Below are positions 54,713 through 57,581 of a stretch of 61,392 nucleotides of DNA, in pieces. A program made the position numbers and the translations under genes. Location of the stretch: positions 1 through 61,392 of IMG/VR virus record IMGVR_UViG_3300037483_000964; one strand, given 5' to 3'. The notes under the pieces were generated by a model, which was given only the letters and a program-made list of their open reading frames with translations, did not search any database and was not told the DNA's origin. The stretch is from a virus (lineage: Duplodnaviria; Caudoviricetes). Position 1 is the stretch's first letter. Every line of letters begins with the position of its first letter.

Positions 54713-56406
54713 AGAACACCCTGGTGTTGATCCTCGCCAAGGACCTCGTGCCCTGGCCGGGCCTCAACCCGCGCCGGCACTTCGATCCCGCGAAGCACGC
54801 GGAGCTCGTCGCGTCGATCCGCATCCGCGGCGTGCAGCAGCCGCTCCTCGTGCATGACACGGGCGGGACGCCGCTCCATGTCGTCGCGGGCGAGCGACGC
54901 CTGCGGGCCGCGCTGGAGCTCGGGCCCGAGACGAGCGTGCCCTGCCTGGTCCGCGAGTACTCGGAGGCCGAGGCGCTCGAGGTCGCGCTGATCGAGAACC
55001 TGGACCGGGACGACCTCTCCCCGATCGAGGAGGCCCGCGGCTTCCGCCGGTTGCTCGAGCAGCCGGGCATGACGCAGCGGAAGCTCGCGGAGAAGATCGG
55101 CCGGACGCAGCCCTTCATCAGCAACCGGATCCGGCTCCTCGAGCTGCCCGAGGCGGTGCTCGAGCTCGTCGAGCAGGGCACGATCGAGGTCTCCCACGCC
55201 CGGGACCTGCTGCTCCCGTTCGCGCACATCCCGGAGGCGAAGCGGGCGAAGTTGTACGCCGGCGTCGCGAAGGAGATCGGCACGGCGAAGGGCCCGCTCT
55301 CGGAGCAGACGCTCAAGGCCGCAATCGTCAAGCACGCGACGAAGCTCAGCCGGCCGGTGACCGATCCCGGTTATGGCGACAAGGACGTCCCCCGATTCGA
55401 CGCGAAGCTGCACGCCGGCATGAAGAAGACGCCGGGGTGCAGCTGCCAGGGCCCGCGGTTCCTCTACGGCTGGCACGGCCGTGCGGAGGTCCGGTGCTTC
55501 GACGACGCCTGGTGGGACGCCGCGCAGGCGGCGGCGATCGCGGCGGAGAAGGAGGCGGAGGCCGCGGCCGCGGCGAAGCTCGCCGAGCAGTCCGCGGGCA
55601 CGCCCCGGGTCATGAAGCAGGCCGCGTTTGAGAAGACATACGAGAACGCGTGGCAACTGCCGCGGCTCGGGCGCGAGCCGATCGATGCGCAGCAGCTCGC
55701 CGGCGCCGCGCTCGTGGTCCTCAATCGGCCGCATGGCGGACCCGAGATCGTCTGCGTCGACGAGAAGGCCTACCGGAAGGCGAAGAGCGCGGCGACGAAG
55801 GTCCGGAACCAGATGCTCGCTGAGAAGAAGGCGGAGCGCGCGGCGAAGCTGCAGAAGACGGTGGCCACGGCGGCGCTCGAGCCCTGGATGCTCACGGAGA
55901 TCCTCGCCGAGCGGCCTTACGATGATCTCGTCGTCGACGTCGCGCGCGAGATCGGCCTCGAGATGCGCAAGCCGAAGAAGGACGCATGGAATTGGGTGGA
56001 CGGTGCGCTTCGAAAGCTCGCGCCGGTGGACGCGACGCGACTCTTCGTCGCACTCGCGATCCGCTCGAAGGCGAAGGATCTCACCGGCGACAAGCTCACA
56101 AAGGAAGTCGACGGCCAGGTCCGGCGGAAGTTCGCGCCCGGGATCACGGCGCTCCGGAAACGGACGCTCGAGGCCGCCGGCATCGATGCGTCGAAGGAGA
56201 TAGAACGAGAGGACATCGACGACGAGGTCGACGGGGTCGACGAGGCCGACGTGGCCTGCGTCGTCTGCGGCGAGCTGGACCTCGCCATCAACCCCGGTAT
56301 CCCGTGGATCGTGCTCGACGCTGACGCGAAGAAGGGCGTCTGCGACGGCTGCGCGGATTCGAAGGAAGAGGCGGAGCAGCTGCTCGCTGAGGAGATGGCC
56401 GCCTGA
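54709..56406 (+). CDS. ParB/Spo0J-family protein
   Basis: NPRRHFD, GVQQPLLV, VAGERRLRA, ENLDRDDLSPIEEA, HTH. Confidence 0.9.
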   Translation: MKNTLVLILAKDLVPWPGLNPRRHFDPAKHAELVASIRIRGVQQPLLVHDTGGTPLHVVAGERRLRAALELGPETSVPCLVREYSEAEALEVALIENLDRDDLSPIEEARGFRRLLEQPGMTQRKLAEKIGRTQPFISNRIRLLELPEAVLELVEQGTIEVSHARDLLLPFAHIPEAKRAKLYAGVAKEIGTAKGPLSEQTLKAAIVKHATKLSRPVTDPGYGDKDVPRFDAKLHAGMKKTPGCSCQGPRFLYGWHGRAEVRCFDDAWWDAAQAAAIAAEKEAEAAAAAKLAEQSAGTPRVMKQAAFEKTYENAWQLPRLGREPIDAQQLAGAALVVLNRPHGGPEIVCVDEKAYRKAKSAATKVRNQMLAEKKAERAAKLQKTVATAALEPWMLTEILAERPYDDLVVDVAREIGLEMRKPKKDAWNWVDGALRKLAPVDATRLFVALAIRSKAKDLTGDKLTKEVDGQVRRKFAPGITALRKRTLEAAGIDASKEIEREDIDDEVDGVDEADVACVVCGELDLAINPGIPWIVLDADAKKGVCDGCADSKEEAEQLLAEEMAA

Positions 56407-57581
56407 TGTCGCTCGGCACCCGCGTACCGCTCGAGCAGGCGCGCGAGCTCGCAGCAAGGCTCGGCGCGGAGCTCGAGTCGCTGGTGTCCCGGATCCACGT
56501 GGCCGGCTCCGTCCGGCGCCGCCGCCCGATCGTAAGCGACGTCGAGTTCGTGCTCGAGCCGCGCCGGCTACCGGCGGACCTCTTCGGCGTCGCCGGCGAA
56601 CCCGATATCGAGCCGATCCGGCGGCTCGCCGAGAGCTGGGGTCGGATCAAGCGAGCGGGCCCGCGGCTGATCGGCATCGCAGATGTGCTCGGGTCGGGGA
56701 TCGACTGCGAGCTGTACGTAATCGATCCGATGAAGTGCAGCCGGTGTGGGAGACCACGAAATGCCAGTATCGAAGAAAGCCTGGAAGGCGATCTGCATCG
56801 TGTGCAAGACAGCATTCGAGAGCATGAGCCGCTATCCTCGGATCGTATGCAGCTACCGGTGCAGGGGGAAGCTCAACGGTCGGAGCGGGCGCCATCAGCC
56901 AACGGGGACGTGCAAGATTTGCGGGGAGCCAACGACGGGCGGTCATTACTACCCGCGACAGACATGCTCGGACGACTGCCTCAAGAAGCTTTGGGCGCGG
57001 ACTCGACCGAAGATTCGGGGTCCGAACCATCCGAGTTGGAACGGCGGACGGATGAAGCGCGGGCTCTACGTGGCGGTGAAGGCGGACGGACATCCGCACG
57101 CTACCAAGGACGGATACGTGATGGAGCACCGGCTGGTGATGGAGGCCCATCTGGGTCGGCTGCTCAATCGGAGAGAACAGATACACCACCGCAACGGGAT
57201 CAAATCGGACAATCGGCTGGAGAATCTCGAGATAGTCACGCACGCGAAGCCACATGGGATCGTGGAATGTCCGCACTGCCAACAGGCATTTCGCGTCCGG
57301 TGACCTCGCGTTGTTCCTGCGGCTCGGGGAGTTTCGTTGGCTCAGAGTGGGGCGTGATCCTCGCGATCCGGACGGGGCCCGCGGAGCTGGGCCAACTCGC
57401 CGTGACGAGGATGCAACGCTACGGCCGGCGCTGTCAGGACGGACACATCGTCGACGTGCGGACGGGCGCAACCATCCTTTGCGACACGGAGGAACGGTTC
57501 TTCCAGCTCGCAGGCATGGGCTGCCTGCCAGCGAGGCTGCGGGACAGCGCCGGCGCGGGCGCCGAGATCGGAGCGCGATGA
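56406..57581 (+). CDS. DNA polymerase X-family (pol beta-like) nucleotidyltransferase with a ~205-codon in-frame insertion
   Basis: AGSVRRRRPIVSDVEFV; IDCELY [insert] EWGVILAIRTGP; TEERFFQLAG. Confidence 0.85.
   Translation: MSLGTRVPLEQARELAARLGAELESLVSRIHVAGSVRRRRPIVSDVEFVLEPRRLPADLFGVAGEPDIEPIRRLAESWGRIKRAGPRLIGIADVLGSGIDCELYVIDPMKCSRCGRPRNASIEESLEGDLHRVQDSIREHEPLSSDRMQLPVQGEAQRSERAPSANGDVQDLRGANDGRSLLPATDMLGRLPQEALGADSTEDSGSEPSELERRTDEARALRGGEGGRTSARYQGRIRDGAPAGDGGPSGSAAQSERTDTPPQRDQIGQSAGESRDSHAREATWDRGMSALPTGISRPVTSRCSCGSGSFVGSEWGVILAIRTGPAELGQLAVTRMQRYGRRCQDGHIVDVRTGATILCDTEERFFQLAGMGCLPARLRDSAGAGAEIGAR
56761..57303 (+). CDS. HNH endonuclease nested in the +1 frame inside polX
   Basis: RBS GGGAG; CxxC/CSxxC zinc fingers; NHPSWNGG, YVMEHRLVME, IHHRNGIKSDNRLENL. 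Confidence 0.9.
   Translation: MPVSKKAWKAICIVCKTAFESMSRYPRIVCSYRCRGKLNGRSGRHQPTGTCKICGEPTTGGHYYPRQTCSDDCLKKLWARTRPKIRGPNHPSWNGGRMKRGLYVAVKADGHPHATKDGYVMEHRLVMEAHLGRLLNRREQIHHRNGIKSDNRLENLEIVTHAKPHGIVECPHCQQAFRVR

Follow-up and report, generated by a model that had tools for sequence, protein, structure and literature searches.

How can a homing endonuclease gene lie inside an enzyme gene and leave it readable from end to end? The question is raised by a virus record of 61,392 bp (IMG/VR record IMGVR_UViG_3300037483_000964; Duplodnaviria, Caudoviricetes), which is complete, has direct terminal repeats and is called the window below. In it, the gene of a small family-X DNA polymerase (PolX) is interrupted by a stop-free insertion that carries an HNH endonuclease gene in another frame. 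To our knowledge, homing endonuclease genes are thought to survive within genes only via introns, inteins or gene splitting. A reading made from the sequence alone, hereafter the sequence-only reading, had proposed a non-splicing homing element that keeps the host frame open and is looped out through a four-cysteine clasp. All parts of this proposal that can be tested in silico held, and the explanation that we favour is, taken whole, probably correct: a mobile homing cassette of ~0.6 kb is read through in PolX and forms a zinc-clasped loop. The absence of splicing, the zinc, the homing steps and the activity of the product are what we infer. What the sequences show is that near-identical alleles occur with and without the cassette, that no stop interrupts the host frame throughout the clade of such cassettes, and that the cysteine pairs in the host frame are conserved.

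The features on which the argument rests are the following.

56406-56729, + strand: 5' part of the PolX gene (residues 1-108), with the GS motif, D45/E47 and the strand of the third carboxylate (...CELYVIDP).
56717-56729, + strand: diverged host codons beside the insert, YVIDP here and YLVHP in the empty allele.
56730-57338, + strand: inserted cassette, net 609 nt or 203 codons, delimited by tblastn and the empty allele, with a hydrophilic peptide in the host frame.
56736-56747, + strand: 5' cysteine knuckle C111-S-R-C114, in the host frame, upstream of the HNH start.
56748-56752, + strand: Shine-Dalgarno-like GGGAG, 8 nt upstream of the HNH ATG, inside host codons G115-R116.
56761-57303, + strand: HNH homing-endonuclease gene of 180 amino acids (aa), in frame +1 relative to the host, with an N-terminal Cys4 zinc ribbon, the HNH core and a C-terminal CPHC.
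57312-57320, + strand: 3' cysteine knuckle C303-S-C305, in the host frame, downstream of the HNH stop and followed by GSGSFVGS.
57339-57581, + strand: 3' part of the PolX gene (residues 312-391 and the stop codon), with ...EWGVILAIRTGP... and the thumb.

The host open reading frame (ORF), at 56406-57581 on the + strand, is open over 391 codons, a mini PolX of ~188 aa plus the insert. When the window is searched by tblastn with an uninterrupted homologue of 188 aa, P0001, the 5' part (56406-56729) shows 91% identity to residues 1-108 and the 3' part (57339-57578) 69% identity to residues 109-188. P0001, 91% identical and without the insert, is the closest of 16 uninterrupted homologues of 184-214 aa, which together with P0009 make up the 17 matches in a search of shorter proteins. 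Among these short matches, two bear the source name 'PolX' and three the Pfam family PF14791 (pol-beta thumb); the same family is present in the relatives P0006, P0016, P0017, P0044 and P0139.

The invariant PolX residues G34, S35, R37, R38, D45 and E47 are kept in the 5' part (alignments A1 and A4), and I321, R322, G324, P325, E362 and R379 in the 3' part. The glutamate of ...CELYV, the third PolX carboxylate, is conserved as well. The top Foldseek matches of the AlphaFold2 (AF2) model of the window protein are Thermus PolX (4e-5), many pol beta entries and African swine fever virus (ASFV) PolX (8.8e-4). Judged from the homologue alignment, the tblastn match of P0001 and these structural matches, the host gene is a minimal palm-plus-thumb family-X polymerase resembling ASFV PolX, with predicted catalysis.

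The sequence-only reading had noticed that PolX motifs normally adjacent are separated by about 615 nt. The interruption stands; the length does not, the net insert being 609 nt and the larger figure counting two codons that replace the host 'PA'. Uninterrupted homologues are continuous through ...ELYLVHP-PA-xWGxILAIRTGP..., and the window in the same alignment reads ...ELYVIDP, 203 aa, GS and EWGVILAIRTGP...; the insertion point lies a few residues past the strand bearing the third carboxylate. As anticipated, insertion-free PolX allows the junctions to be fixed: the empty allele and the uninterrupted homologues set them at 56730-57338, and both cysteine motifs belong to the insert, not to the host. 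The insert is indeed lower in guanine plus cytosine (GC 0.54-0.65 inside against 0.67-0.75 outside). It has no stop in the PolX frame, as first read, and six in the third + frame.

Parts of the stretch were found in four public runs, of which X1, possibly the source sample, covers all of 55900-58100. In run X2, from another study, a contig (record 11) spans the filled 5' junction (56548-56897) with 2 differences and no new stop in either frame. A 193-nt contig of run X3 (record 18) is identical to the window over 56630-56716 (87 nt, 0 differences). It then has 20 nt where the window has 629, which restores ...ELYLVHPPAQWGV... / ...LVHPPAQ... in frame, and afterwards matches 57346-57429 with 5 differences. 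Run X3 has the label RNA-Seq, but a flag marks it as probably DNA, and no RNA run was listed as containing the stretch. Record 18 is an empty allele and not spliced RNA of the window allele, since the codons flanking the junction differ, YVIDP in the window and YLVHP in X3. At the junction itself, 87 identical bases are followed by 6 differences in 15 bases, and the diverged stretch 56717-56729 has the look of a tract of co-conversion or of a flank that resists cleavage. The PolX loci found in IMG/VR are uninterrupted in 6/6 cases.

The nested gene is a complete HNH gene in the +1 frame, in agreement with the sequence-only reading: Pfam HNH_3 matches it at E 1.5e-11 with 44.1 bits (cut-off 24.8). 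Seventeen PHROG families match the same ORF, the best being phrog_20891 (E 1.9e-26), and the H, N and Cys columns are invariant across HNH relatives, window included (alignment A3). An alternative start, GTG 56746, would give 185 aa. A TGA at 56731 closes the HNH frame ten codons ahead of its ATG, which makes a PolX-HNH fusion unlikely. Internal initiation is plausible, given the GGGAG before the ATG and AGGAG/GGAGG-like strings upstream of likely HNH starts in several relatives (found by eye, unscored). Outside the HNH ORF, the insert comprises only ~31 nt and ~35 nt. In the GTGA at 57300-57303, the HNH stop TGA shares bases with a GTG of the host frame; restart coupled to this stop could yield a separate 93-aa C-terminal PolX fragment besides the read-through product.

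Is the open host frame a matter of chance or of selection? When synonymous codons of the nested HNH ORF are shuffled, no stop appears in the host frame of 275 out of 20000 shuffled sequences (mean ~3.4 stops; P = 0.014, a value that excludes the extra 1-in-3 chance of an in-frame insert length). From IMG/VR, metagenome contigs and GTDB genomes we collected 240 loci of HNH relatives, which gave 215 unique HNH ORFs on tblastn rescoring. By the sequence-only reading, host-frame stops in homologous inserts would have spoken against the proposal. The closest have none: the top-scoring 12 of the 215 ORFs have 0 stops in frame -1 of the HNH gene, which is the host frame in the window too, and the loci ranked after them have 11-29. 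The 12 are the six query loci L009, L011, L012, L026, L033 and L042, together with L174, L169, L138, L101, L107 and L177.

Around these 12 genes the HNH -1 frame is open for 433-798 codons. The surrounding ORFs are phage DNA methyltransferases, with PF01555 in two stretches in 6/6 scanned and the remaining hosts assigned by motif reading (TSPPY..., DPFxGSGTT). In several of the 12, GC is 0.37-0.46 and 9-13 stops are expected by shuffling; none of 5000 shuffles is stop-free for L033, L009, L169 or L138. The shuffle P of the other members runs from 0.098 (L101, with a GC of 0.86 at third codon positions, GC3) down to 0.0002. The nested lineage as a whole spans GC 37-67% and metagenomes from many habitats. 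By this sequence comparison, selection keeps the host frame readable through these HNH genes, because 12/12 of the closest relatives are stop-free, even the AT-rich members.

Relatives with an insert at the PolX site itself came from a profile search. No Pfam family (E<=0.1) and no PHROG family matches the 391-aa product as a whole, tblastn of this product against the phage collection gave no match, and no homologue of 215-685 aa was found at E<=0.001 among 8000 candidates. The blank at 215-685 aa is a matter of sensitivity, as the later profile search gave insert-bearing relatives. The profile of uninterrupted PolX (A2) matched 8110 representatives at E<=1e-3 among 1.84 billion; of the best 150, which were inspected, six have an insert exactly at profile position 108-110 (P0044, P0139, P0038, P0056, P0073 and P0072). 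These inserts have the form CxxC...Cx(1-2)C and are ~30 to ~245 aa long.

P0044 (398 aa) and P0139 (423 aa) are single proteins that read through the insert, with the cysteine bracket around ~200-245 hydrophilic residues. Their inserts align lengthwise with the read-through peptide of the window, a likeness which suggests that their genes hold an HNH ORF too. A search for P0044 DNA in IMG/VR returned 2 loci, neither carrying the insert. P0038 and P0056 have inserts of ~80-85 aa in the same bracket, which appear to be decayed cassettes; a remnant of the HNH core survives in P0056 in its host-frame reading. In P0073 and P0072, both without an HNH, the cysteine clasp persists as a ribbon of only 33-38 aa (CxxC-x14/15-Cx(1-2)C), contiguous in the 33-aa form of P0073, and the tail ...SFVGS/AFTGN... 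follows as in the window. The GSGSFVGS motif after the 3' knuckle is common to the window, P0056 and P0073.

Bounded by CSRCG and CSCGS, as the sequence-only reading had it, the 203-aa insert has only four cysteines, C111/C114 and C303/C305, and both pairs lie outside the HNH ORF. The inserts of relatives likewise begin with CxxC and finish with CxxC in the host frame. A survey for other cysteine-bounded nested HNH inserts, which that reading had recommended, found a pair at both ends in 12/14 nested loci against 2/366 controls. The controls are non-nested loci in two alternative frames each, scanned in fixed intervals around the HNH start and stop; a narrower first 3' interval had given 5/14 against 1/552, and the widened intervals were applied equally to the controls. 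In the methylase alignment A5, there are two cassette sites; at each, some members carry the cassette and others lack it, with the cysteine pairs present or missing along with it. The two knuckles may form a split four-cysteine zinc ribbon, which would bind zinc and, by contact between the knuckles, probably tie the ends of the insert together.

The same alignment contains bare CxxC...CxxC/CxC inserts of ~45-55 aa at other conserved places of single methylases, in columns ~560-640 (L033) and ~770-820 (L009). No HNH accompanies them, and lost cassettes may have left them as scars.

The AF2 model of the window protein (31-row alignment, mean predicted local distance difference test, pLDDT, of 73) agrees with ordered ends around a loose loop. 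Residues 101-120 have pLDDT 96/89, the block 111-120 with the 5' knuckle being at 89; residues 301-310 have 92, the thumb >95 and most of residues 153-293 <50, so both knuckles are predicted to be ordered. DSSP assigns short strands at 110-111, 117, 300 and 310-311. A like pattern is seen in the AF2 model of the L011 methylase, with pLDDT 79/83 at residues 371-390, <50 at 393-560 and 77/86 at 561-580.

Altogether, we propose the following course of events. The cassette would insert into a phage mini PolX where palm and thumb meet, at the conserved ...LVHP|PA.WG... site. It would bring three parts: a 5' CxxC knuckle in the host frame, with downstream codons that carry the ribosome-binding site of the HNH gene; the HNH gene in the +1 frame; and a 3' CxC/CxxC knuckle back in the host frame. 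The insert would be retained in RNA and protein, ribosomes translating PolX through the HNH gene in the wrong frame into a long hydrophilic, largely unstructured loop. The two knuckles would bind one zinc as a split zinc ribbon and hold the loop ends, which would leave palm and thumb able to assemble. Made by internal initiation, the HNH protein would cut empty alleles, and repair would copy the cassette with some flanking donor sequence. After decay of the HNH gene by deletion, the clasp would remain as a small zinc-ribbon insert.

Part of this lifestyle has been described before. The 'third strategy' of the sequence-only reading is not a new concept, as an unspliced, out-of-frame HNH insert with a stop-free host frame is already published for phage methylases (Arsenault, Gosselin and Gogarten, Genes 2025, PMC11855218). 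The text of that report describes the ShiLan domain of mycobacteriophage DNA methylases as an insert without host-frame stops that hides an out-of-frame HNH, with no detectable intron or intein (RNAweasel for introns), and proposes that it remains in the protein as a loop. The domain had first been noted in 2023 (PMC9957025). Like it, the window element occupies a conserved site, is carried by some close relatives and missing from others, and is patchy in distribution, with an open host frame, an HNH in another frame and no intron or intein found; for both, a loop that stays in the host protein is proposed. The window HNH is 34-36% identical (E ~2e-9) to ShiLan-type elements, which stand under 'DNA methyltransferase' annotations.

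The two differ in build. For ShiLan (L249), L250, L187, L236 and L246, HNH +1 is the host frame and is free of cysteine pairs; zinc fingers lie at the C-terminus of the HNH, and the flank of the insert repeats host sequence. In the window clade, unlike these, the host frame is HNH -1, the HNH has an N-terminal zinc ribbon, a CxxC...CxxC bracket stands in the host frame and the Shine-Dalgarno sequence is recognisable. By these sequence features, the window element is of the same kind as ShiLan and of a different lineage. New here are a family-X polymerase as host, a separate lineage with the opposite frame relation, and a putative host-frame zinc-ribbon clasp with apparent scars. The text of PMC11855218 names no PolX host ('polymerase' occurs once) and no 'CxxC', and mentions zinc only for the HNH frame; its supplements may list more hosts. 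In the literature searched there was no other paper on the ShiLan domain, and none on a host-frame clasp or a PolX host.

ShiLan-type hidden HNH genes also occur beyond mycobacteriophages, in contigs of metagenome-assembled genomes (MAGs) and a cyanophage (L187, L236, L246 and L250), with a KPxxEP host motif at both ends. L250 is Cylindrospermopsis phage Cr-LKS3, whose coding sequence (CDS) is annotated 'DNA methylase'.

The best-surviving alternative, which we regard as unlikely, is that the insertion knocked out a dispensable PolX and that the frame stays open for other reasons, either to avoid Rho-type polarity downstream or to aid HNH translation. The ShiLan host methylase is dispensable according to its authors (PMC11855218, Discussion 4.1), ShiLan-type inserts are open without a clasp, and the 3' part of the window gene has diverged from P0001 more than the 5' part; all this would fit a knock-out. 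However, over a GC range of 0.37-0.67 the host-frame cysteine pairs are conserved as amino acids, and P0073 and P0072 keep them after loss of the HNH, which argues for selection on the protein. No invariant PolX residue is missing, and among the variant positions that runs X2-X4 list in the 3' part, 16 of 22 are third codon positions (hand count); stretches of the insert uncovered in these runs carry no weight as evidence.

Quite improbable, in our view, is a zinc ribbon native to some PolX and methylase lineages, into whose loops the HNH homes, so that the clasp lies outside the mobile unit. Such an origin would account for the bare ribbons without HNH at the same PolX site (P0073, P0072) and for the other bare CxxC...CxC inserts in the L009 and L033 methylases. 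The nearest relatives of the window speak against it: both ribbon and HNH are missing from P0001 and from the empty X3 allele with its 87 identical flanking nucleotides, so ribbon and HNH came or went together here. The same bracketing is found with a homologous HNH at several unrelated sites in two gene families, and the ribbon-bearing PolX rows are scattered singly on the tree. In this tree of 157 rows, from which the insert columns were left out, 7 changes are needed to explain the seven rows with an insert (shuffle mean 6.9), and P0056 is sister to the insert-free P0022 (68% identity, support 100). A FastTree reconstruction with many weak forks, it shows scatter and not the order of events. 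The sporadic distribution of the insert is of the kind that a mobile element would leave.

An unrecognised self-splicing or host-assisted intron, its core overlapping the HNH ORF and removed from RNA, we hold to be very improbable. HNH genes are common in phage group I introns according to section 3.5 of PMC11855218, Rfam models can miss divergent introns with large ORF inserts, and near the junctions one can find by eye a 5' U and a 3' G that would preserve both frame and length. In line with the sequence-only reading, which saw no group I intron core, Rfam 15 (E<=10) finds no intron family in the 1401 nt of 56300-57700 and only a 13.7-bit chance match to an internal ribosome entry site. An intron was rejected on this null result and because the ~66 nt of non-HNH insert are too little for a ribozyme core. 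Splicing from RNA would also lift selection for a stop-free host frame, yet 12/12 closest relatives have one, and the decayed cassettes have stayed in frame, where gene calls include them in the protein. The ShiLan authors likewise found no intron by RNAweasel, as their text states (PMC11855218). Nor was there an intein motif, as the same reading had noted: Pfam gives no Hint or intein match (E<=0.1) in the 391-aa product, and the insert ends in ...SFV / GS, without HN. The intein candidate was rejected on the Pfam and PHROG nulls for this product.

To mere coincidence, an HNH that landed in frame in a GC-rich genome with an alternative frame stop-free by luck, we give next to no credence: high-GC genes often have open alternative frames, the window has long spurious ORFs on both strands and its own P is 0.014, but the open frame is a property of the clade that holds at low GC (0/5000 in the four loci above), with homologous cassettes in P0044 and P0139 and the cysteine-pair statistics (12/14 against 2/366).

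Several observations weigh against a clasped, read-through cassette. For the window taken alone, chance is only moderately unlikely. The drop from 91% (5') to 69% (3') identity to P0001 could be due to co-conversion, with relaxed constraint as the alternative. The gene caller of the source record gave only a 56-aa C-terminal fragment (P0009, 57411-57581) and left the 391-aa ORF uncalled. The 3' knuckle of the window is CxC and not CxxC, and two of the 14 nested loci are exceptions, L012 having CC and L101 ending at the contig edge. ShiLan-type inserts, L187, L236 and L246 keep the host frame open without a cysteine clasp, so the clasp is not required for this lifestyle. L078, L088 and L143 are without stops in the +1 frame, but on at least one side this frame reaches only 4-104 codons further; we treated these frames as open by chance and not nested, since a GC3 of at least 0.74 opens some alternative frames. 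Finally, the L011 methylase model is weak overall (8-row alignment, mean pLDDT 51.5).

Other known systems share single traits with the window element. I-HmuI is reportedly an HNH endonuclease encoded in a group I intron. Like that type, the element is an HNH homing gene of the same broad HNH_3 family at a conserved site of a phage DNA-metabolism gene; unlike it, it has no detected ribozyme core and its host frame is conserved open. In phage Aeh1, mobE is said to split nrdA, and mobA in T4 gene 60 to be accommodated by a 50-nt translational bypass (on the latter, see also bioRxiv 10.1101/2022.08.31.505936). As in these two cases, a free-standing homing gene sits in an essential-type gene and host function would be spared without intron or intein. 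Unlike the split nrdA (two polypeptides) and gene 60 (ribosome hop), the window would give a single read-through polypeptide.

Inteins with out-of-frame or antisense, EndoVII-like endonucleases have been reported as well (bioRxiv 10.1101/2025.01.02.630785). As far as that preprint describes them, they share with the window an endonuclease ORF overprinted on a stop-free host-frame insert; unlike the window insert, which has no Hint or intein match, they are spliced from the protein by a Hint domain. A comparable arrangement is seen in L248:1127-2098, from a Spirochaetes MAG, where an HNH-frame ORF lies out of frame in an apparent mini-intein of a methyltransferase (CVSEDTEILT... to ...VFVTGN|S). 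Its intein frame has 0 stops against 11 expected by shuffling and resembles the inteins described in bioRxiv 10.1101/2025.01.02.630785, but with an HNH.

In the window, the PolX ATG overlaps the stop of an upstream ParB-like gene (TGATG). This gene (54709-56406, 565 aa) has ParB_N and HTH_ParB domains and a C-terminal CxxC...CxxC of its own. Downstream, at 58120-59874, lies a large serine recombinase (Resolvase, Recombinase, Zn_ribbon_recom). A second HNH gene, at 50581-51165 (+), encodes 194 aa and matches the A3 profile at E 1.1e-20. It appears free-standing, overlaps the ends of both neighbours and is not nested in an open host frame; by eye, these neighbours are SbcD/Mre11-like (49451-50584) and SbcC/Rad50-like (51036-53618).

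The ShiLan report of 2025 suggests, in its text, a further survival route for homing endonuclease genes in one gene family (PMC11855218). The window extends that route to a polymerase gene, with a separate lineage, a conserved cysteine bracket and recognisable scars. It is an evenly balanced possibility that we see here a second widespread lineage of dual-coded homing cassettes, which would bring their own split zinc ribbon, a 'portable clasp', into unrelated enzymes and whose clasp would outlast the HNH. The finding is also a warning for annotation: gene callers split such genes, as with the 56-aa fragment here, or miss the hidden HNH, as in Cr-LKS3 and ShiLan-type methylases, which are given as single CDSs. 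If such a second lineage exists, its clasp would let HNH genes settle unspliced in conserved loops of a mini PolX and at several sites in two types of DNA methyltransferase. If our explanation is true, it would give a testable rule for how enzymes tolerate long unstructured inserts. Such cassettes would then be a source of the small zinc-ribbon inserts in phage and bacterial DNA enzymes.

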